A stretch of DNA of 13,197 nucleotides from a virus (IMGVR_UViG_2703718841_000007), one strand, 5' to 3'; counted from the stretch's first letter, positions 1-13,197 are shown. A program made the numbers and translations. Notes: generated from the sequence alone by a model not told the origin.

Positions 1-25
1 TCCTTTATATTGAGTGTATCGCCAA

Positions 26-50
26 CGCGCCTTCGGGCGCGTTTTATTTA
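26..50 (+). terminator. Intrinsic-terminator-like hairpin with T-rich tail
   Basis: Read directly: stem CGCGCC (26-31) / GGCGCG (36-41), TTCG loop (32-35), then TTTTATTTA (42-50). Would end a plus-strand transcript entering from the left. Confidence 0.5.
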
Positions 51-120
51 CCTGTAGCACATTGAAATAAAAGGATTTATCTCAACAAACGTCCACATAG
101 TGACCACATCGACAATACAA

Positions 121-2682: not shown

Positions 2683-3396
2683 TCAAACTCCCGTAGACTC
2701 TTTTTTCAGCGCCCGCAGACGCGCAGCAATACGCTGCAACATCGTGCCAACACCACATTTAGGGTCGAATCCCTTCGCCTGCTCCAGCAGTTCCTTAGCC
2801 CGGAGCAATACTTCCCTGTCTTCCGTTGCCGCTGCGCGTGGCTCTCCGTTTTCATCGCGTAGCAGGTGCAGACCGGCAAACTTCAGGTATTTGGCCTTAA
2901 TGACCTCATACACATTCCAGTGCTGCGTCACGTTTTCCAGCGTACGGCCAAAATACGGCTCCACATCATGCCCCTGTACGGCTTCCGCTTCCGCCCAGGA
3001 CAACACCGTATCCGCCACAAACACCGGGAACGTACTGCCGAACGCGGCCGGGGTTTCCTGCCCCCGCTGGATTGCCATATCCGCCCAGTCCAGCGCCTGG
3101 TCAAACTGGCCTGTATCAAACAGCCAGACGACACACCAGGCAAAAACAGGATTCTGTTGCACACTGTCACCTTCCAGCCAGGATTGCGCGGTTGGCATCC
3201 AGCGCGGTAACAGCACATCACGCTTAAATTCCATTCGCTCAGCGCGGCTTTCAATCGCTGCAGCTGCGGCGACATCTTTCTCCAGCGCGACAATCTGAAT
3301 ATGCAGGCTGGTTTCCGTGTCCAGAGACTGCTGCTGTCGCAGTAACCGCTCCGCTTCAATTCGTGCGCTGTGGCGCTGTGCCGGTGACAGTTGCAT
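2683..3396 (-). CDS. P2 gpM-like terminase small (endonuclease/DNA-recognition) subunit
   Basis: N-terminus MQLSPAQRH..., LLPRWMP and WLFDTGQFDQALDWADMAIQRG segments match my recollection of the gpM family. ATG at 3396 with a strong AGGGGGA Shine-Dalgarno; starts 10 nt after the O-like stop. Confidence 0.7.
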   Translation of the reverse strand: MQLSPAQRHSARIEAERLLRQQQSLDTETSLHIQIVALEKDVAAAAAIESRAERMEFKRDVLLPRWMPTAQSWLEGDSVQQNPVFAWCVVWLFDTGQFDQALDWADMAIQRGQETPAAFGSTFPVFVADTVLSWAEAEAVQGHDVEPYFGRTLENVTQHWNVYEVIKAKYLKFAGLHLLRDENGEPRAAATEDREVLLRAKELLEQAKGFDPKCGVGTMLQRIAARLRALKKESTGV

Positions 3397-3406
3397 TAAA
3401 TCCCCC

Positions 3407-4108
3407 TTACTCGCCTGCCGGAGGCGCGACAGGTGCCCCGATAGCTACCGCTTCTTCCGCCTCACCCAGACGGGTTTCAATAGCAGATACGCGCTTATCA
3501 ATGGCATCCAGCGCTTCAGCCAGCGCCTGTAAGGCATCAGACTGTGAAGGTTCCTGCTCCGGGGTCTGCTCCGGTTCTTCGATACTGAAAAAATGGCGCC
3601 AGCCCTTTTTCGCTGTCTTTGACATTCCCTTTTCCTTTTTAAATTCCCTGACTTCATCAAACGCCAGCGGCTTGTATGGTCCGATGCGTTTTCCCCTGGT
3701 GCGGCTGAAACGTAACCGTGTGGTGCTTACCCCGGCCGGACTGTCAGTAATGGCCAGTCCCTCAAGATAGGTTTTCCCGGTATTTCTGAAATTGCCGTCC
3801 GGTGTAAACTCCGGTGATAAAAATAAAAGCTGACCGTCTGCATTTGCCTGTAGCAATGAAATCGCCGGACAGAGGCGGGCATATAAACGAAGAATACCTT
3901 CATCATCCCGCTCGGCTTTTACTTCCAGCACCTCCCCCATATTCCCGAAATTACGGGAATGTTCCGGCCATAACAGCGCGGTATACAAAGAGGGGTCATA
4001 TAATTCAGCGGCATCAAGCAACCATTGTTCTTCAATAAATCGCTTATCAACCGTTTCACCCGCAGTGGCGATACAAATCCAGTTTGTTGCCAGTTGTGAA
4101 CCTGACAT
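3407..4108 (-). CDS. P2 gpO-like capsid scaffolding protein/protease
   Basis: GKTYLEGLAITDSPAGVSTTRL and a C-terminal coiled-coil-like region (EALDAIDKRVSAIETRLGEAEE) resemble the gpO family. The track ORF starts at GTG 4168, but the ATG at 4108 has a perfect GGAGG 5 nt upstream and is preferred. Shorter than my recollection of P2 gpO (about 284 aa). Confidence 0.7.
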   Translation of the reverse strand: MSGSQLATNWICIATAGETVDKRFIEEQWLLDAAELYDPSLYTALLWPEHSRNFGNMGEVLEVKAERDDEGILRLYARLCPAISLLQANADGQLLFLSPEFTPDGNFRNTGKTYLEGLAITDSPAGVSTTRLRFSRTRGKRIGPYKPLAFDEVREFKKEKGMSKTAKKGWRHFFSIEEPEQTPEQEPSQSDALQALAEALDAIDKRVSAIETRLGEAEEAVAIGAPVAPPAGE

Positions 4109-4251
4109 ATTGCCTCCGTTCATGCTGCGGTTTTCAGTATCGCCAATAAAATTAACCGCCGCATTCACTTCATTTCGGATATAGGCTATTAGCCGAACAC
4201 ATCAGAAATAAAGCGGGATTTAATATACAAACGCCCGTGCATAATGTGTGC

Positions 4252-5496
4252 ATGGCTAAATATTCAGAAGAATTAAAAGGCGTTGCGCGGGCGCTTTATT
4301 TAAAACGCTATACCCCGCAGGAAATTGCCAGCGAACTTAATCTGCCTAACAGACGCATTGTCTATTACTGGGCGGAGAAATATTGCTGGGCGGAATTACT
4401 CAGTCATGAATCCACCGAAGATGCATTAAACCGTCGCATTCAGTCACTGACATTACGTGAAGGGAAATCGGAGCTGGAGCTGCGGGAGCTGGACAGTCTC
4501 GTTTCTCACCTGGTGAAACTACGTGCACAGCACAATAAGCATCAGGAAAAGCTGGCAGAAATTAAACACAGTGAAAATGATGCGCCGGCGCGTCAGTCCG
4601 GTGGCGACGAAAAGCCCCGGAAACGTGGCAAGTACAAAAAGAACGACATCAGCGGACTGACACAGGAAGATTTTGACCGGTTCGCGCTGGAGCACCTTTT
4701 CGGTTACCAGAAACACCTTCGCGCTAATCTTCATCAGCAAATCAGGAACATCCTGAAAAGCCGCCAGATTGGTGCAACCTGGTATTTCTCAATAGAAGCC
4801 TTTGAGAATGCGGTCATGACAGGCGATCCGCAAATCTTCCTGTCCGCATCAAAGGCTCAGGCGGAAGTATTCCGCAGCTATATCGTCAACATTGCGGAGC
4901 AGTATTTCGGCGTGGAGCTGACGGGAAACCCCATCCGCCTCTCCAACGGCGCGGAGATGCGATTCCTGTCCACCAACAAGAACACCGCCCAGTCATACAG
5001 CGGCCATCTGTACTGCGATGAATATTTCTGGGTACCCAACTTTGCAAAATTAAACGAAGTGGCCAGCGCGATGGCCACACACGACAAATGGCGAACCACC
5101 TACTTTTCCACCCCCAGCAGCAAAACGCACCAGGCGTACCCGTTCTGGACTGGTGAAGAATGGAAGCGCGGTGACAAAAAACGCGCGCGCGTACAATTTC
5201 CCACGGAGAAGGAGCTGCGCGACGGTGGACGGTTATGTCCTGATGGGCAGTGGCGCTACATCATCACAATGGAAGACGCGATCGCAGGCGGGTTTAATCT
5301 CGCCAGCATCGGGAAGCTGCGCAACCGCTACAACCGCGACACTTTCAACATGCTGTATATGTGCGTGTTCGTGGACAGCAAGGACAGCGTATTTTCGTTC
5401 TCTCACGTAGAACGCTGCTGTGTAGATCCGGATATGACAATGAAGCGGAACACTGGACGCTCCCGATTGACCGGCTGGCGCTGGCGCAACTGGTGA
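4252..5496 (+). CDS. P2 gpP-like terminase large (ATPase) subunit, C-terminally truncated; probable pseudogene
   Basis: N-terminal HTH-like region, then KSRQIGATWYF (Walker A-like), FLSAS, DEYFWVP (Walker B-like) and YFSTPSS...PFWTGE typical of the gpP family. Family resemblance stops near 5427 (...HVERCCVD) and the ORF ends after a 23-aa unrelated tail. It has about 415 aa against about 590 in P2 gpP (recalled), so the C-terminal nuclease domain is absent. The GTG at 4237 is an alternative start. Confidence 0.65.
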   Translation: MAKYSEELKGVARALYLKRYTPQEIASELNLPNRRIVYYWAEKYCWAELLSHESTEDALNRRIQSLTLREGKSELELRELDSLVSHLVKLRAQHNKHQEKLAEIKHSENDAPARQSGGDEKPRKRGKYKKNDISGLTQEDFDRFALEHLFGYQKHLRANLHQQIRNILKSRQIGATWYFSIEAFENAVMTGDPQIFLSASKAQAEVFRSYIVNIAEQYFGVELTGNPIRLSNGAEMRFLSTNKNTAQSYSGHLYCDEYFWVPNFAKLNEVASAMATHDKWRTTYFSTPSSKTHQAYPFWTGEEWKRGDKKRARVQFPTEKELRDGGRLCPDGQWRYIITMEDAIAGGFNLASIGKLRNRYNRDTFNMLYMCVFVDSKDSVFSFSHVERCCVDPDMTMKRNTGRSRLTGWRWRNW

Positions 5497-6332
5497 ACCT
5501 GAACGCGCAGCACGGCGGTGTGCTGTATGCCCGTCGCAATATGGTGACGGCAAACTATAAAGACGGCGGACTGACGCATGAACAGCTTGGTGCAGCCGTG
5601 TTCGACTGGCTGACCTTCGGTGATGTGGCCATTCTGAAAGTGCGTAACGGCTGGGGGGATGTGGTGGCACTGTACCCGCTGCCGGCACTCTATACCCGCC
5701 AGCGTAAGACCGGGGAGTTTGTGGTACTGCAGCAGGGTGAACCGATGATTTATCCGCCTGAAGATATTATTTTTCTCAGGCAGTACGATCCGCAACAGGC
5801 GATTTATGGTCTGCCGGATTATATCAGCGGTATCCATTCTGCCCTGCTTAACGGTGAGGCAACAATTTTTCGTCGGCGTTACTACCATAACGGCGGACAC
5901 ACAGGTGGCATGATCTACTGTAACGACCCAAATATGACTGATGAAGTGGAAGAAGAAATTATTCAGAAGCTGGAGCAGTCAAAGGGGATCGGGAACTTCA
6001 GCACCATGTTTGTGAACATCCCCAAAGGCGATCCGGACGGCATCAAATTTATCCCGATTGGGGATATCAGCGCCAAAGATGAGTTTCAGAACATCAAGAG
6101 CATCAGCGCCCAGGACGTACTGACCGCGCATCGATTCCCGGCAGGACTGGCGGGGATTATCCCGACGAACGGCGCAGTAATGGGAGATGTTGAGAAAGCG
6201 TCCAAAACCTACCGCAAAGCAGAAATTTTGCCCATTCAGCGCATGTTTACCGCCGCAGTGGAACAGGAAAGTGATGTACCGCCCCACCTGTACCTTAATT
6301 TCCTGAAAGACAGTGAGCTGGAAGGTGATTAA
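5361..6332 (+). CDS. P2 gpQ-like portal protein, N-terminally truncated and out of frame with the upstream P-like ORF; probable pseudogene
   Basis: IYGLPDYISGIHSALLNGEATIFRRRYYHNGGHTGG and the downstream KGIGNF...DGIKFIPIGDISAKDEFQNIKSISAQDVLTAHRFPAGL resemble the gpQ portal family. Resemblance begins about 25-35 residues into this frame-3 ORF, which overlaps the end of the frame-1 P-like ORF. The listed start is a GTG chosen by the ORF caller, not a credible initiation site. Confidence 0.6.
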   Translation: MRVRGQQGQRIFVLSRRTLLCRSGYDNEAEHWTLPIDRLALAQLVNLNAQHGGVLYARRNMVTANYKDGGLTHEQLGAAVFDWLTFGDVAILKVRNGWGDVVALYPLPALYTRQRKTGEFVVLQQGEPMIYPPEDIIFLRQYDPQQAIYGLPDYISGIHSALLNGEATIFRRRYYHNGGHTGGMIYCNDPNMTDEVEEEIIQKLEQSKGIGNFSTMFVNIPKGDPDGIKFIPIGDISAKDEFQNIKSISAQDVLTAHRFPAGLAGIIPTNGAVMGDVEKASKTYRKAEILPIQRMFTAAVEQESDVPPHLYLNFLKDSELEGD

Positions 6333-7588: not shown

Positions 7589-10246
7589 TTACTTTTCCCG
7601 GCCAAATATCCAGCAGCGGAATGTTTCCGGCATCCGTTGCATATCCCCTTTACCACGATTATGGCGCTCACTTACCGCGCTGCGCGTGGTGCTTTGTCTG
7701 ATAAACCGGCGCTCATTGCCGTTTTTAAGCAGCTTTTTAATTTCCGTTAACGTGAACGGAATACGCTGCCGGTGTGCTGCGGCGACCTCTTCCATGTGAT
7801 TGAAATTAACCGCGATTTCATTTTCATCTGATGAATGATTGATGCCATAAGGTGCCAGTTCATCCAAGTAATCAAACAGCTCCCAGAACTCCTGCACCAG
7901 AGGATGATCCTTTTTAAGTGCCTGACAACGTTCAACGGCCAGCGCGGTGATGGCTTCACGCGTTTTTTCTATACGTTCAACCGGCACCGGTACAACAAGT
8001 GCAAGCGCCTCCAGCAAGCCCACAAGCTGCGCGTGATTCTTTGCAATACGGATATGGCGAATACTGCTATTAGACTCCAGCTCATTCCTAGCTCGCTCGT
8101 ACCCCCTGCCGAACGTCTGCATGATTTCTTTTTCGCGCATGGTGGCCAGTAATGTGAATCCGGATACCTGGCTAACGGGGAGTTGTTCAAGTCGTTCTGC
8201 AGCGTGGCGCGTCTGAATGGACTGGCCGCGCTTGTCGGTATAGATGTGGATGATACGCTCCAGAAACGCCTTGCTGCCGTCTGTGTCGGCATTTTGCGCT
8301 ATCACAATACTTCCCCTGAACGGCGGCTCATACGTCTCGTTATTGTTCGATTTGATACCCACGGCGCGGGAGGCACGACCGTTATACAGTGATTTCAGCT
8401 CGTCCCAGTCAAAAGCGCGTTGCTTGGCGTTATCGGTAGTACGGTCGCCCTCAATCAGCACAACCGGCAGATTACCGACCTGGGCGAAGTTACGGCCACG
8501 CGCGGCGGCGGTAGATTTAGATGGGTCAAACCCTTCGTATTCCTCACGGCCGGCGAGCTTCCAGAGAAATTCTATCAGCGTGGATTTACCTGTCCCCGGC
8601 TCGCCCACGATTTCCAGAAACGGAAATGACTTGTCACGCTCGCGGATTTGTTCGGCAAACAGCGACCCCAGCCAGAACGCCAGAGCCACATACCCTTTTT
8701 CACCAAATGCCGTCCAGATATCGTCTACCCAACCCGTAGTAAACTCGTTCAGCTTCGGATTCAGATCCAGCGCCGGCGTGAGGCTCAGGCTCTTAACACT
8801 GGCACTGTTGATTTCGAAGTAATCCTCGTCGTTCATCTCATACAGCCGGCCATCGCAAACGGCCACGCGGTTAAACAACCAGGCGGCATAATCCTTGTTA
8901 TAGCCGATGAAATTCTGCGTCTTTACCTCTTTGATTTCAGGGAGGCGCATCTGGATGAACTTATCCAGCTGTTTGGTGCTGCCTGTGTACACCGCCCCTT
9001 TGGCGATGTGCAGCAGACGCTTTTTGAACTCGGCGGAGCTGGTGAGCTGATTAGCCGTGAAAGTATCTTTCACGGCTGGCCGGTTAGGCATACTGACTTT
9101 CACGTAATACCAGGACTCGTCCGTAGGTTCAGACCGCTGAAAGTAAAGCGGCGTCAGCCAGCAGTTAGCTATTTCGGTCACGCCGCCTGACTCTTTAACC
9201 GCCCGTTCTTTGGCCTCCCACTCCATCACCACTTCGGTACCGGTATTGGTGATGCGCTCATAGGCTCGCATATACCTGTCCAGATCCAGCTCAAACCAGT
9301 ACATGCGGGAGTTATGCTCAAAGTAGAACGAGTGCCACTCGTTATGCTGATGCATGAGCAGCGCTTTCTCAGTCGGGCTTTTTGCCAGAAGGAGATCGCC
9401 ATAGTAGCGATAATTTTTAATGTCCGACTTACTGAACCGGTTACGTAACAACAGGTCATTCCAGTCCAGCGATGCCGATGATTTCACCGGCTGCGCGGCA
9501 CGAGTTTTCCATCCTGCAGCATCACTACGGGCAGCGAACGCCAGTGTGTGCTTTGTGCCGGCTTTATCGCCGTCAAACGCCCATACAAGACGTGGACGTG
9601 GTTTTTCACCCAGTTCTTTGGCCAGCGTATCCAGTGCGGCCAGCGGATAGTTGTTACTGCTCAGTGTGGCAACTGCAGGTAACCCTGCCTGGCACAGACT
9701 CAGCGCGTTGAAGATTCCCTCAGTGATCCAGATTTCGTTCACTTCCTGCAGGTTGATAAAGGGAGGAACCCACCAGTGACCGACATAGCTTCCCCTGATG
9801 TTGGCTTTCTGCTTACCGAAGCGCTGCGGCTGGTCAATGATGCGCTCCCATGTTGCACCGCATGACAGCGAAAATCTGACCGTTGCCGACCCCATGCCAT
9901 CTTTCACGAATGCACCCTGGGTAAAACAGCCTTTTAATGGCTCAGTCTCCAGCCCTCTGGCCTCGCGCAGATACGCCTCAGCTACTGCATGGGGGTTATC
10001 TTCTGTGGTCTGGTAACGTTTTGACCAGTCTTCAAAGATATCCGGATACAGCTCTTTCACGACAATCTGATGTGCGCAGTTATTTTCACGGCCACATTTC
10101 AGAATCCAGGGCTTTTCTATGCTGGTAAATAATTCGCGCTTACGACAGGCAGGGCAAACGCCCTGCTGCAAATACTTATCCCGCTCTTTAAATTCAAAGT
10201 CCCGAACAAGACGGCGCACAACGTCCTGTTGTATCGTTTCGTTCAT
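7589..10246 (-). CDS. P4-alpha-type bifunctional DNA primase/helicase (zinc-binding plus TOPRIM primase, P-loop helicase, C-terminal domain)
   Basis: CPACRK...CGRENNC zinc motif; TOPRIM-like ITEGIFNALSL and WAFDGDKAG; Walker A IVGEPGTGKST. One 60-nt line (8461-8520) hand-counted at 38 G+C. The ORF is open from TTG 10282; the first ATG is 10246; neither has a good Shine-Dalgarno. This is not a P2 A-type rolling-circle initiator. Confidence 0.8.
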   Translation of the reverse strand: MNETIQQDVVRRLVRDFEFKERDKYLQQGVCPACRKRELFTSIEKPWILKCGRENNCAHQIVVKELYPDIFEDWSKRYQTTEDNPHAVAEAYLREARGLETEPLKGCFTQGAFVKDGMGSATVRFSLSCGATWERIIDQPQRFGKQKANIRGSYVGHWWVPPFINLQEVNEIWITEGIFNALSLCQAGLPAVATLSSNNYPLAALDTLAKELGEKPRPRLVWAFDGDKAGTKHTLAFAARSDAAGWKTRAAQPVKSSASLDWNDLLLRNRFSKSDIKNYRYYGDLLLAKSPTEKALLMHQHNEWHSFYFEHNSRMYWFELDLDRYMRAYERITNTGTEVVMEWEAKERAVKESGGVTEIANCWLTPLYFQRSEPTDESWYYVKVSMPNRPAVKDTFTANQLTSSAEFKKRLLHIAKGAVYTGSTKQLDKFIQMRLPEIKEVKTQNFIGYNKDYAAWLFNRVAVCDGRLYEMNDEDYFEINSASVKSLSLTPALDLNPKLNEFTTGWVDDIWTAFGEKGYVALAFWLGSLFAEQIRERDKSFPFLEIVGEPGTGKSTLIEFLWKLAGREEYEGFDPSKSTAAARGRNFAQVGNLPVVLIEGDRTTDNAKQRAFDWDELKSLYNGRASRAVGIKSNNNETYEPPFRGSIVIAQNADTDGSKAFLERIIHIYTDKRGQSIQTRHAAERLEQLPVSQVSGFTLLATMREKEIMQTFGRGYERARNELESNSSIRHIRIAKNHAQLVGLLEALALVVPVPVERIEKTREAITALAVERCQALKKDHPLVQEFWELFDYLDELAPYGINHSSDENEIAVNFNHMEEVAAAHRQRIPFTLTEIKKLLKNGNERRFIRQSTTRSAVSERHNRGKGDMQRMPETFRCWIFGREK

Positions 10247-10285
10247 AAATAATCCAGATGTGAAATAATGGGTAAAAGGCAAAAA

Positions 10286-10504
10286 CTATATTCTGTACTG
10301 CTTGTTATATCGCTCATGTGTCATTAGTTCCCAGCTTCTGCCCTTATCCTTACTCAGTAATCGCCAGCGATAAGAAACATAAACAGAGAAATAATGTTTT
10401 GGCTTAATAACCTGATATACCTTTTTGCCGTTGTAATATTCTGTCAGCACTGAAAATGCCTTGTGAATGACACTTTCACTTGCATGAGAGGTCACTGTAA
10501 GCAT
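10286..10504 (-). CDS. Hypothetical protein (72 aa), AT-rich
   Basis: ATG start 2 nt after the exonuclease stop; ends 3 nt before the primase ORF. No family recognised. Lys/Tyr/Arg-rich. Confidence 0.45.
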   Translation of the reverse strand: MLTVTSHASESVIHKAFSVLTEYYNGKKVYQVIKPKHYFSVYVSYRWRLLSKDKGRSWELMTHERYNKQYRI

Positions 10505-11085: not shown

Positions 11086-11421
11086 TTAACGTTGGGAAGC
11101 TGCAACAGATTTAAGATGCGAGTTATTACTTTTTAACGCTGTGGTAGCCAGCGACATAAGACCGGAAATGTTATTTTCAGTTGGTATATTTCCGCCAAAT
11201 ACCATAAGCGTGATTTTGTGCAGTTCTTCAAAATCATCACTATCATTATTAAAGCGAGCAGTGGAGGTTATACCCTCAAGGCATTTTGCAAGCTGAATGT
11301 TTAATTCCATTAACTGCAAGCCATCGCTATGTACAGAGAATGTTTCTTTATCAATGGTTTTTGCCTGAGCGTGATAGTTTTGCAACAGACTACGAATCAG
11401 CGTGGCATATTTAGTCTTCAT
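11086..11421 (-). CDS. Hypothetical protein (about 111 aa), AT-rich
   Basis: The ORF is open from TTG 11433; the ATG at 11421 has a GGGGA Shine-Dalgarno 7 nt upstream. Its stop is 9 nt before the exonuclease start. No family recognised. Confidence 0.45.
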   Translation of the reverse strand: MKTKYATLIRSLLQNYHAQAKTIDKETFSVHSDGLQLMELNIQLAKCLEGITSTARFNNDSDDFEELHKITLMVFGGNIPTENNISGLMSLATTALKSNNSHLKSVAASQR

Positions 11422-11447
11422 GATAATCCCCAATAATATTTAGTTTA

Positions 11448-11729
11448 CTAACGAGCACTTTTATCTTTCGTGAATAAACGGTTCTTCCAGTCATGCCATT
11501 CAGGCGGGGCAATTTGAGCCAAATGAATGGCATAAGCATCCCATTCCCCCCGATGGATATAGATTTCCCCACCTTTTTTTGATGGATTTAGAGGGTCTTT
11601 CATGCGGATTACCGGCAGTTTTCCAGCCGTGGCCATTTTGCGAATTGCAGCAGGCGTTTTGCCTATATATTCGGCAAAAAGCTCAGGGGTCACCAACTCT
11701 GAAAGCGCCTTTTCTGCTGGTTCCTTCAT
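11448..11729 (-). CDS. cox: P2 Cox-like excisionase/switch repressor
   Basis: 93 aa with AGKLPVIRMKDP, corresponding to the KLPVIDM region of P2 Cox as I recall it. It is transcribed divergently from the C-like repressor and is the first gene of the early operon, as in P2. Confidence 0.7.
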   Translation of the reverse strand: MKEPAEKALSELVTPELFAEYIGKTPAAIRKMATAGKLPVIRMKDPLNPSKKGGEIYIHRGEWDAYAIHLAQIAPPEWHDWKNRLFTKDKSAR

Positions 11730-11837
11730 CTGTGGTATCCTTCGTTAGTTTGGGTTCCTAGGGCGCTTTAAGTCGTTCTAGGGTTCTTTTGTCAAGGTTC
11801 TTTTGTAAGAACCAATAATAGTTGCGATACAAGAACC
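11730..11837. promoter_or_regulatory. Immunity-switch intergenic region with operator-like repeats between cox and the C-type repressor
   Basis: Read directly: GGTTCTT at 11782-11788 and 11796-11802; perfect inverted repeat GGTTCTT-TTGT-AAGAACC at 11796-11813; a further AAGAACC at 11831-11837 abutting the C start codon; direct repeat GTTC(C)TAGGG at 11753-11763 and 11775-11783. Confidence 0.6.
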
Positions 11838-12137
11838 ATGTCAAGAAATTATGCGGAGAAACTCCGGCAGATCCGGAAAGCTGAAGGGTTAACTCAAAAA
11901 GATTTTTCAGAGCTTACTGGGGTAGCTCTTGGAACAATAAAAAAGTACGAAACTGGCCATCAGCCAGCTCGTGCAGAAGTCTTAGAAAGTGTTATAGAGG
12001 TACATATGTTTGAAAAATATACACTCTGGTTAATGACAGATAAGACGGCACCAATTGCGGGGCAGGTGTCCCCGTCTCTCTCCCCTGATGGGCAAGACAA
12101 CATAACATCATCCCGTTCCACCCGGAAAATTGGCTAA
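11838..12137 (+). CDS. P2 C-type immunity repressor (small XRE-family HTH protein)
   Basis: 99 aa, the same length as P2 C. HTH LTQKDFSELTGVALGTIKKYETG and the KYTLWLMTDKTAPIAGQVSP segment match my recollection of P2 C (KYTLWFMT...). Lies upstream of and co-directional with int, as in P2. Confidence 0.8.
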   Translation: MSRNYAEKLRQIRKAEGLTQKDFSELTGVALGTIKKYETGHQPARAEVLESVIEVHMFEKYTLWLMTDKTAPIAGQVSPSLSPDGQDNITSSRSTRKIG

Positions 12138-12203
12138 ACATCTGGTTTTTCTATGCGTTAGCGCAAAATTTACATAATGATTCATACATCGGAGGGCTTC
12201 GCT

Positions 12204-12464
12204 ATGTCGATTAAGAAGCTTGATGATGGTCGTTTTGAAGTGGACGTTAGACCGCGCGGAACCTCAGGAAGAAGGATTCGACGCAAATTTGACAGAAAGG
12301 CGGAAGCACAGGCATACGAGCGGTATGTACTGACAAACTTTCACGATAAAGAATGGCAGGATAAACCCGCAGACAGGAGGCTTGTATCCGAGTTAATTTC
12401 TTTATGGTGGAGCTACCATGGAAAGAATCACAACTATGGTGACTCATATAAAAAGCGTTTGGAA
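12204..12464 (+). pseudogene. int: Tyrosine integrase, N-terminal arm-binding domain fragment (frame 3), separated from the catalytic part by a +1 frameshift
   Basis: MSIKKLDDGRFEVDVRPRGTSGRRIRRKFDRKAEAQAYERY is a typical phage integrase N-terminal domain. GGAGGG Shine-Dalgarno 7 nt before the ATG at 12204. The reading frame switches inside the A7 run at 12463-12469. Confidence 0.65.
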
Positions 12465-13197
12465 AAAAATCAACCGAGAAATGGCGGAACCCAGAGTGTA
12501 CGAGCTTACCCGCAACTTTCTGATGAAATATCGTGCAGAACGACTTCATAGTGGAGTATCTGCTGGCACGGTAAACAGGGATTTCTGTTCCATGTCCAGC
12601 ATGTTCAGTTTGCTGATAGATATGGAAGAATTTCATCACGAAAACCCGTTTCGCGCCGTGAAGAAGTTACGTCTGGAAAACACAGAAATGTCATTTCTGT
12701 CCGAAGAAGAGATCCACCATTTGCTGAATGCCCTTACAGGGGATGATCGCAGAGTTGTCGTTCTTTGCCTGAATACAGGAGCACGATGGGGTGAAGCCAG
12801 TAATCTTAAAGCTGAAAACGTGATAAGTAACCGTGTGACCTTTGTTAAGACCAAAACCGGCCCAGCTCGTACTGTTCCGATATCGAAGGAAATCGCGGAC
12901 TACATCCTTACACGCAAATCGGGGAAATTGTTCGATACCAACTATGAGCGAGTTCGCGATGTTCTTCGTAAGATTAAGCCAGACTTGCCGAAAGGTCAGG
13001 CACTGCATGTTTTACGCCATACCTTCGCAACACATTTCATGATCAACGGCGGGAATATCATCACGCTACAGCGTATTTTGGGTCATACAACAATCGAGCA
13101 AACAATGACATATGCTCACTTCGCCCCAGATTATCTGACTGATGCCATACGATTTAACCCTATGCGTGGGAGTGTCCACATAATGTCCACCGACTAG
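12418..13197 (+). CDS. int: Tyrosine integrase, core-binding and catalytic domains (frame 1); C-terminal part of the frameshifted int
   Basis: Catalytic signatures TGARWGEA (box I Arg) and HVLRHTFATHFMINGGNIITLQRILGHTTIEQTMTYAHF (H-x-x-R and Tyr region). The stop codon is the last three bases of the window. The ORF's own ATG at 12418 is internal to the gene. Confidence 0.85.
   Translation: MERITTMVTHIKSVWKKINREMAEPRVYELTRNFLMKYRAERLHSGVSAGTVNRDFCSMSSMFSLLIDMEEFHHENPFRAVKKLRLENTEMSFLSEEEIHHLLNALTGDDRRVVVLCLNTGARWGEASNLKAENVISNRVTFVKTKTGPARTVPISKEIADYILTRKSGKLFDTNYERVRDVLRKIKPDLPKGQALHVLRHTFATHFMINGGNIITLQRILGHTTIEQTMTYAHFAPDYLTDAIRFNPMRGSVHIMSTD

Follow-up and report, generated by a model that had tools for sequence, protein, structure and literature searches.

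The short spacer between the cox and C genes of a P2-like prophage holds two classes of repeats, and the question raised by this locus is which regulatory protein reads which class, and on what promoter it does so. The window that was analyzed (the whole stretch of 13,197 nucleotides, IMGVR_UViG_2703718841_000007) is almost exactly one decayed P2-like prophage, and the spacer is the C/Cox immunity switch of this defective prophage of E. coli, which is situated between raiA and pheL. The reading to which we assign a probability of about 0.78 is that the early promoter Pe would be repressed by C at two sites, O1 and O2, with Cox acting on a separate set of phased boxes. The binding of C and Cox, the dimer stoichiometry, the transcription starts and the location of Pc are what we infer from the sequence of this switch and its relatives.

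The earlier note on this DNA had taken the locus for a C/Cox switch, and the gene products agree with such a switch of the P2 type: the C ORF resembles P2 C (E 7e-20), and the ORF on the opposite strand both belongs to the Phage_Cox family and matches P2 Cox. By phmmer, residues 1-99 of C align with residues 1-99 of the "C protein" of PDB 2L49/2XCJ (E 6.9e-20), and the cox product matches PDB 4LHF, the P2 Cox structure, with an E of 5e-9. The gene order int-C / cox lies within a P2-like remnant with 22-bp att repeats at its ends, and the identical locus is annotated in RefSeq as Cox family protein / HTH protein / phage integrase. Leftward of cox are a 3'-5' exonuclease gene, a ParE-like gene and a Toprim primase gene, and beyond the primase are Ogr, portal, terminase, scaffold and small-terminase genes; a capsid gene is absent from the gene content of the window. 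The frameshift in int was called against the intact 330-aa int of strain YPE10, in which the element is likewise sited between raiA and pheL. The bounding direct repeat of 22 bp is AACGC(G/A)CCTTCGGGCGCGTTTT, one copy of which is found at window positions 24-45. With int frameshifted and the capsid gene missing the prophage is defective, and its switch may no longer be important to the host. The identical switch is present in 19 of 5,426 complete E. coli genomes. Among 50,697 phage records, blastn with the switch matched the C gene only, at 68% identity, and tblastn against the INPHARED phages gave no C protein more than 55% identical; the immunity specificity is apparently uncharacterised so far.

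GGTTCTT had been placed at 11782-11788 and 11796-11802 and its complement AAGAACC at 11807-11813 and 11831-11837, with a perfect inverted repeat of 4-bp spacer at 11796-11813 and a second repeat class beside it, and reading of the sequence bears out each of these positions: the inverted repeat is GGTTCTT-TTGT-AAGAACC, i.e. 7-N4-7, and the second class is present as GGTTCCTAGGG at 11753-11763 and GTTCTAGGG at 11775-11783. The spacer measures 108 bp, as had been claimed, from the cox start (CAT at 11727-11729, minus strand) to the ATG of the 99-aa C ORF at 11838, which stands immediately 3' of the last AAGAACC copy. The clustering of GGTTCTT is greater than chance. Over both strands of the 13,197 bp there are six copies where 1.47 would be expected, a count reached by only 1 of 200 dinucleotide shuffles, and four of the six fall within 56 bp; 5 of 300 shuffles produced a perfect 7-N4-7 palindrome that had a third copy of its arm within 60 bp. 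An independent repeat search also recovered the inverted GGTTCTT pairs, together with an 8-nt direct repeat (AAGAACCA, two copies 24 bp apart) and an 11-nt direct repeat (GGTTCTTTTGT, two copies 14 bp apart). TAGGG alone is without enrichment across the window (10 found, 15 expected), so that the second repeat class rests on conservation and context rather than on counts.

The only sigma-70-like match in positions 11400-12250 is Pe, which reads TTGACA-18-TATTAT on the minus strand and agrees with the consensus at 11 of 12 positions. Relatives of the switch were gathered by exact-protein look-up and by an alignment-based scan of viral contigs. All 15 pheL-site loci have TTGACA-18-TATnnT at this place, as do most other switches; the relatives share phylogeny, and conservation counts such as this one are not independent events. 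By weight matrix Pe scores 13-15 bits in the pheL-site relatives, as compared to 14.1 for the annotated Pe of P2. The overlap of the -35 with the C start, TTGACATGG, is identical to that annotated in P2, and the P2 GenBank record gives the order Pe -35 over the C start, O1, -10, O2, which is also the order in the window. Because TTGACATGG and the order of the parts match P2, the Pe spacer contains the site that abuts the C start. Pe would drive leftward transcription into cox from a predicted start near 11808. The pair of "divergent" promoters earlier proposed does not fit this arrangement well, Pe being at the C end and directed toward cox, and in P2 Pe and Pc face each other.

Table 1. Genes and sequence elements of the switch and of the adjoining att region, in window coordinates.
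Feature	Position	Strand	Basis or remark
cox, 93 aa, first gene of early operon	11448..11729	-	PF10743 Phage_Cox, E 7.7e-25
Candidate Pc, extended -10 TGGTATCCT, predicted start near 11748	11733..11741	+	putative, weak
Terminator-like hairpin, boxes 1 and 3 plus GCG/CGT extension, then TTCTTTTGT	11752..11792	+	terminator scan
Probable Cox box 1, CTAGGG, within repeat 11753-11763	11758..11763	+	10-bp phasing with boxes 2 and 3
Probable Cox box 2, TTAAGT, degenerate	11768..11773	+	relatives; TTAGGG in L004, L016, L018
Probable Cox box 3, CTAGGG, within repeat 11775-11783	11778..11783	+	TAGGGTT conservation
Leftmost GGTTCTT copy	11782..11788	+	unconserved, probably incidental
Putative C site O2, GGTTCTT-TTGT-AAGAACC, perfect 18-bp palindrome	11796..11813	.	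about -5 to +13 of Pe
Predicted Pe -10, TATTAT	11815..11820	-	promoter scan, 11/12 matches
Putative C site O1, AGTTGCG-ATAC-AAGAACC	11820..11837	.	fills Pe spacer, as P2 O1 does
Predicted Pe -35, TTGACA, overlaps C start codon	11839..11844	-	promoter scan and matrix scan
C immunity repressor gene, 99 aa	11838..12137	+	HTH_3, E 1e-9
Integrase gene, frameshifted in window	12204..13197	+	one extra A in A-run ending 12463
Int arm-type repeats TGTCCAC, two copies	13173-79, 13184-90	+	P2-type arm consensus
TAG of first att-side box, at window end	within 13173..13197 feature		remaining att boxes just beyond window

The CTAGGG repeats are probably Cox boxes, to judge from their conservation and their recurrence in att. 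Cox would act on three boxes phased by 10 bp (CTAGGG / TTAAGT / CTAGGG, 11758-11783), and the same boxes beside the Int arm sites in att would link excision to repression of Pc, an arrangement known from P2 and WPhi. TAGGGTT hardly varies over the full set of C specificity classes, and the repeat unit of the boxes in relatives is 10 bp, YTAGGGCGYT. A TAGGG-type triple with the same 10-bp phasing starts at the int stop codon in YPE10 (L001) and in other pheL-site loci; it is intact in about half of the pheL-site loci, with one or two boxes degenerate in the rest. This att triple has the Int arm-type repeats on one side and the att core on the other, as does the annotated Cox site of P2 attP, and the order of arm sites, Cox site and core is that of the annotated P2 attP; the P2-type Int arm consensus is tgTGGaCa (PMC3448106). 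In the control locus L019, which has a different Cox and occupies the cpxP site, TAGGG is absent, and the switch and att have CTTGTAACTGCTTA in common instead. The boxes are also constant where Cox is constant, as seen in the comparison of L035 with L018 and L026. Cox-type target repeats thus occur in both switch and att as a matter of sequence evidence alone. In addition, the analysis gives the att structure for a family of prophages whose target, across the Enterobacteriaceae, is the raiA terminator upstream of pheL.

A cox-box of P2 style was considered as well. One such sequence, TTAAAGCGC, is present as a single copy on the minus strand (11771-11763, 8 of 9 positions), and the similar TGAAAGCGCC at 11701-09 falls in coding sequence. 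The phased CTAGGG reading is preferred over it because only CTAGGG recurs in att. There are three probable Cox boxes here, as against six or more reported for P2.

Selection on the box region could be due to a conserved hairpin instead. The GTTC(C)TAGGG repeats would then be primarily the arms of a plus-strand RNA hairpin, i.e. a terminator or attenuator ahead of C, a proposal that is compatible with the boxes and that we consider unlikely, if worth keeping in sight. The terminator-like match is followed by a T-run, and the RNA fold is -15.4 kcal/mol with a z of -3.4. In 20 distinct relatives 89% of the cells are paired and 6 pairs are changed on both sides; 7-14 of 500 shuffles reach the observed values (14 of 500 for the covariation score), a modest signal from a structure that was derived from one of the tested sequences. 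The many G.U pairs make the hairpin specific to the plus strand, and L079 has a perfect 10-bp inverted repeat of different letters at the same place. However, the att copy is a purely direct triple without a hairpin, direct repeats built on CTAG, itself a palindrome, are bound to pair, pairing is seen in the WPhi repeats too although no T-run follows them, and no known promoter lies upstream of the hairpin. No family was matched in an Rfam scan of 11300-12300. The hairpin may arise as a side effect of the palindromic CTAG at the core of the repeats, or it may be a real terminator or attenuator.

The promoter of C itself is the least certain part of the switch. The candidate Pc, an extended -10, belongs to a motif TGnTAT(C/T)CT that is present in 15 of 15 pheL-site loci, n being variable; its conservation is confounded because the motif overlaps the complement of the cox Shine-Dalgarno sequence. 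WPhi has TGTTACCCT where the published Pc start falls (PMC1904263). The candidate is without a consensus -35, and a weight-matrix scan of the relatives gave no conserved consensus Pc promoter. With starts near 11748 and 11808 the Pc and Pe transcripts would overlap by ~60 nt, as compared to 35 in P2 and 82 in WPhi. The best plus-strand score, 9.7 bits, belongs to TTGTCA(11789)-19-AATAAT(11814), which was rejected as Pc because its -35 falls in seven columns that are all variable, its -10 arises automatically as the mirror image of the Pe -10, and both operators would sit on the promoter. TTCCTA-18-TAGGGT and hexamers positioned as in P2 were dropped by eye for a poor -10.

A more elaborate proposal joins the candidate Pc to the hairpin: the Cox-box region would double as a plus-strand intrinsic terminator (11752-11792) just downstream of the TGGTATCCT Pc and attenuate C-int. 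This is a speculation to which we attach little weight. Were it correct, rightward transcripts would end after about 45 nt or else continue into C-int. The truncated ones would be small RNAs antisense to the cox leader, and the supply of repressor and integrase would be set by attenuation, which Cox or C bound nearby could modulate. We know of no such attenuation layer described for P2-like switches.

The preferred reading of the GGTTCTT repeats, two dimer sites for C on Pe, is drawn from 13 distinct switches whose C proteins have the same or a near-identical recognition helix (GT[IV]KKYE) and which align without gaps. Among these the AAGAACC arm of O1 (11831-37) is constant in all seven columns (13 of 13 relatives), and in O2 the proximal arm AGAACC (11808-13) and the distal arm GGTTC (11796-11800) are both invariant. 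The centers are free: 4 of 4 columns vary in that of O2 (11803-06) and 3 of 4 in that of O1 (11827-30), and all seven columns between box 3 and O2 (11789-95) vary. The O2 18-mer is GGTTCTTTTGTAAGAACC. O1 retains 3 of 7 palindromic pairs, its -35-side arm being conserved and its -10-side arm half degenerate; the arm beside the Pe -10 keeps only AGTTG, which is invariant in the 13 switches. This pattern is the footprint that would be expected of two 18-bp C dimer sites. The two direct repeats of the operator, AAGAACCA, 24 bp apart, flank the Pe -10, are conserved and co-vary with C; operator repeat spacings published for P2-like phages are 22, 26 and 34 bp (PMC1904268).

C, as a 99-aa helix-turn-helix dimer, would shut off Pe by occupying the two 18-bp 7-N4-7 sites, O1 filling the spacer between -35 and -10 and O2 covering the predicted Pe start. 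The Pe-upstream arm of each site would be GGTTCTT on the Pe strand, and these two arms would be the "direct repeats" of the P2 literature. A partner arm is predicted 11 bp downstream of each; in O2 it is a perfect inverted copy, so that a symmetric dimer can there read one and the same sequence with each of its recognition helices, and in O1 it is presumably constrained by the Pe -10 and retains only GTT. The fourth GGTTCTT, at 11782-88, would lie outside the operator.

The earlier note had counted four GGTTCTT half-sites. Four copies are indeed present, but only three are conserved among the 13 switches, and in place of four equivalent half-sites the units look like two 18-bp dimer sites, 24 bp from center to center. 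It might still be held that all four are working C half-sites, the leftmost, alone or with 11796-11802, being an extra operator for C's own promoter. The leftmost copy does belong to one of the two perfect 11-nt direct repeats (GGTTCTTTTGT, 14 bp apart), GGTTCTT is found there in three lineages (E. coli, Pectobacterium L006 and Enterobacter L011/12), and P2 C is reported to raise and then to lower its own synthesis (PMC3448106). Nevertheless, 11782-88 reads GGTTTGT or GGTTTTC in 6 of the 13 same-specificity switches, its last three columns being variable, and the constant GGTT is part of TAGGGTT, which is also retained by classes whose C arms are unrelated; moreover the leftmost copy has no partner arm 11 bp away, and an 18-bp site built on it overlaps O2. 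We consider an operator role for this copy improbable; it is probably incidental.

The site abutting the C start, now O1, had been taken to suggest autoregulation, a claim that does not hold well in that form: the site is between the -35 and -10 of Pe, with TTGACA over the C ATG, and from this position its first-order role would be repression of Pe. That O1 mainly autoregulates C rather than repressing the early promoter is doubtful in about the same degree. The site is on the path of any rightward C transcript, and at high concentration P2 C turns down its own expression (PMC3448106, PMC1904263), but O1 lies exactly in the Pe spacer, between a perfect -35 and the -10, where P2 O1 lies, and around it there is no conserved rightward promoter, the best being TTGTCA-19-AATAAT with its variable -35.

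The assignment of the GGTTCTT-type sites to C was also followed through the relatives. Other recognition-helix classes (AIGTIKSYEAGHQS, VSLSTIKSYETGHQS and others) have different arms at the same positions, with both sites changed together. One such class has GGTTGTT-N4-AACGAC(C/T) in both sites, and arm sets elsewhere are GGTTGTAA-AA-TTACAACC, GGTCAG-N6-CTGACC and GGTCTTC-N4-GAAGACC. In L035 Cox is 99% identical and the boxes are identical, whereas the N-terminal half of C is 64% identical and the arms are unrelated; in L018 and L026, on the other hand, Cox is only 75% identical and helix 3 of C is of the same type (GTVKKYE as against GTIKKYE), and the GGTTCTT arms are kept. The arms track the DNA-binding, N-terminal half of C and not Cox. 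The proposal of separate C and Cox operators is in this way upheld, the GGTTCTT-type arms following the N-terminal half of C and the CTAGGG boxes following Cox and recurring in att. The swapped assignment, Cox on the GGTTCTT sites and C on the CTAGGG boxes, can be given almost no credence in the face of this double dissociation (L035 against L018/L026), of the presence of the CTAGGG boxes in att, where only Cox is expected, and of the position of the GGTTCTT sites on Pe, where P2 C acts.

The palindrome of O2 is not peculiar to this prophage. A survey of 100 switches, 67 of them distinct, recorded, for the 50 nt that follow the Pe -10 on its downstream side, the 7-N4-7 site with the best score: the site is 7/7 in 15 and 6/7 in 24 of the distinct switches, as compared to 0.2% and 4.8% of shuffles, respectively. 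A palindromic O2 (at least 6/7) is thus present in 39 of 67 and absent in P2 (4/7). At least 12 different arm sequences are found among the palindromic sites, e.g. GATAACC-TTTT-GGTTATC in a P88-like isolated phage (L002). The WPhi-like class has an asymmetric O1, of which O2 is approximately the reverse complement; its two sites are asymmetric and mutually inverted. The P2 C family has been described as direct-repeat binders (PMC1904268, PMC2995052), with the lack of a palindrome stressed as a property of the P2 C repeats; O2 here is a perfect 7-N4-7. A palindromic operator appears to be the common state in the family, and departs from the published "direct repeat" description. In the literature search a palindromic operator of this family was unmentioned; the 2006 immunity-class survey of Karlsson et al., which reportedly distinguishes immunity classes I-VII, lay outside that search.

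The significance of the palindrome lies in an oddity of which P2 C is the textbook case, namely a symmetric HTH dimer whose target is said to be direct repeats that are not palindromic. In this symmetric dimer the helices are spaced as in P22 c2, and it was proposed that one helix reads the 8-bp repeat and the other contacts DNA outside it, on a side that was left undetermined (PMC2995052). The O2 palindrome includes the "direct repeat" as one arm, which implies that each "half-site" is a full dimer site with its partner downstream, and suggests P2 itself as the degenerate case. P2 C requires both of its half-sites, whereas a palindromic site would be expected to be bound by itself. In the P2 C footprint four patches are protected, namely O1 and O2, the spacer, and ~12 nt on the downstream side of O2 (PMC1904263), and this matches partner arms downstream of each repeat. 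The symmetric-reading model may not be valid for all members, P2 being without the palindrome and the WPhi-like class being asymmetric. That the palindrome at 11796-11813 is instead a nucleic-acid structure, an RNA hairpin or DNA cruciform, and not a repressor site seems very improbable. Its arms do stay complementary across classes, as a hairpin would require, but the third arm copy in O1 co-changes with them (AAGAACC becoming AACAACC in class B), the Pe RNA would lack one arm, its predicted start being inside the palindrome, the stem is short and A+T-rich, and in place and size the palindrome corresponds to the P2 C footprint (PMC1904263) and to the 18-bp operators of P22 c2 type (PMC2995052).

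Among the closest known systems is the switch of P2 (AF063097). The 99-aa C is 39% identical to P2 C over its full length (BLASTP), and Cox is of the same Pfam family and 38% identical. Gene order is int-C / cox in both, as is the Pe -35 TTGACA over the C start with TTGACATGG, two 8-nt direct repeats flank the Pe -10 at a distance of about two helical turns (22 bp in P2 and 24 bp here), and the att Cox site lies between the Int arm sites and the core. Other features differ: the operator repeat is GTTTAGAT in P2 and TGGTTCTT here, O2 has a perfect inverted partner arm that P2 lacks (4/7), and the Cox boxes of P2 are TTAAA(G/C)NC(A/C) in at least 6 copies, whereas those of the window are CTAGGG-type with three clear copies. 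P2 Pc also has a TATAAT 38-43 nt from cox, an element without counterpart here.

WPhi (AY135739, immunity class III) has the more similar repressor, with C 51% identical, although its Cox is only 40% identical. A 12-nt direct repeat of the Pe-Pc region has been reported as the sequence that WPhi Cox recognises (PMC5009727). A single repeat of this kind is seen there, CCTAGAARGGAC, in two copies 20 bp apart from start to start, and we infer that it is the WPhi Cox target; it resembles CCCTAGAACGAC / CCCTAGGAAC of the window, which are likewise 20 bp apart on the same strand. WPhi shares as well an extended -10-like TGnTAYCCT where Pc is expected. Its O1 and O2, unlike those described here, are 10-nt direct repeats 34 bp apart.

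A site of 18 bp with two-fold symmetry, whose outer arms are conserved and whose center is free, recalls the operators of P22 c2 and 434 cI, and the P2 C dimer superposes on the N-terminal domain of P22 c2 with the same helix spacing of 26 A (PMC2995052). The comparison rests on the HTH fold, and O1 is here only half symmetric. The tripartite CI/Cro operator of lambdoid phages differs from the present arrangement, which has two sites rather than three and in which Cox uses separate boxes, not shared operators, this second repeat class being distinct and tracking Cox. The CI/Apl switch of phage 186 shares face-to-face promoters, and Apl and Cox are both recombination directionality factors that act on phased direct repeats, between the promoters and at att (PMC7498355). 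However, the CI of 186 has two domains and about 190 aa and binds inverted repeats as well as distant sites, and a switch of that type includes cII and an establishment promoter, whereas the repressor here is a 99-aa protein of P2 type, aligning end to end with P2 C. What the element adds to the known P2 C/Cox switch is a new immunity type, and not a new kind of system.

The whole element is flanked by a 22-bp direct repeat, AACGC(G/A)CCTTCGGGCGCGTTTT, which resembles the raiA terminator hairpin and probably represents the att core; almost all of the prophage remnant would therefore be contained in the window. All relatives from Citrobacter, Enterobacter, Salmonella, Klebsiella and Pectobacterium are found on the upstream side of pheL/pheA. 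In the pheL-site locus of E. coli strain YPE10 (L001), a long inverted repeat lies just past the point where the window ends, with the att-side boxes on one side and the att core on the other (17826-17866; TAAGGCGCTCAT...ATGAG(A/C)GCCTTA, then TTATTT), and is probably the int terminator.

The remnant is decayed in its late region (2683-6332), where the small terminase gene adjoins the scaffold gene with the capsid gene absent between them, and where a 419-aa terminase ORF and a 323-aa portal ORF overlap. The copy of the same prophage in YPE10 has a deletion pattern unlike that of the window, and its primase gene is interrupted by an internal stop. The integrase is split into two frames (12177-12551 and 12418-13197) because the A-run at 12457-12463 has one A more than the intact 330-aa integrase gene of YPE10; the split gene is either a pseudogene or the product of a sequencing error.

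Alignment of the C proteins shows them to be mosaic, in that the nearest relatives of the DNA-binding N-terminal half are not those of the C-terminal half; e.g. the C protein P0021 joins an N-terminal half of class B, which carries another recognition-helix type than the window's, to a C-terminal half identical to the window's. Cox and C have also recombined independently within the prophage family. Together these features point to frequent module exchange within this family of P2-like prophages.

In the switch itself, the two CTAGGG boxes form a terminator-like hairpin followed by a T-run (11752-11792, plus strand), which is plus-strand-specific because of its G.U pairs and whose covariation among 20 relatives is modest. 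The extended -10-like motif TGGTATCCT (11733-11741, plus strand), seen as TGnTAT(C/T)CT in all pheL-site relatives, is a possible C promoter, with the caveat that it is also complementary to the cox ribosome-binding site.

Early operon genes and repeats probably associated with integration
Feature	Position	Strand or type	Context
ParE-like toxin-domain gene, 72 aa	window 10286-10504	-	early operon
Toprim/DUF5906 primase gene, 897 aa	window 7589-10282	-	early operon
22-bp flanking repeat	window 24-45; L001 2528-2549 and 17881-17902	direct repeat	
Int arm-type repeats GTCCACA/GACCACA	window 91-108		near attL; fit to P2-type arm consensus
Int arm-type repeats TGTCCAC x2	window 13173-13190		within int 3' end; fit to P2-type arm consensus

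The ParE-like toxin-domain gene of the early operon has no obvious partner. Where P2 carries an A-type replication gene, the window prophage has the Toprim/DUF5906 primase in its place; the Int arm-type repeats, on the attL side and at the int 3' end, match the P2-type arm consensus tgTGGaCa.
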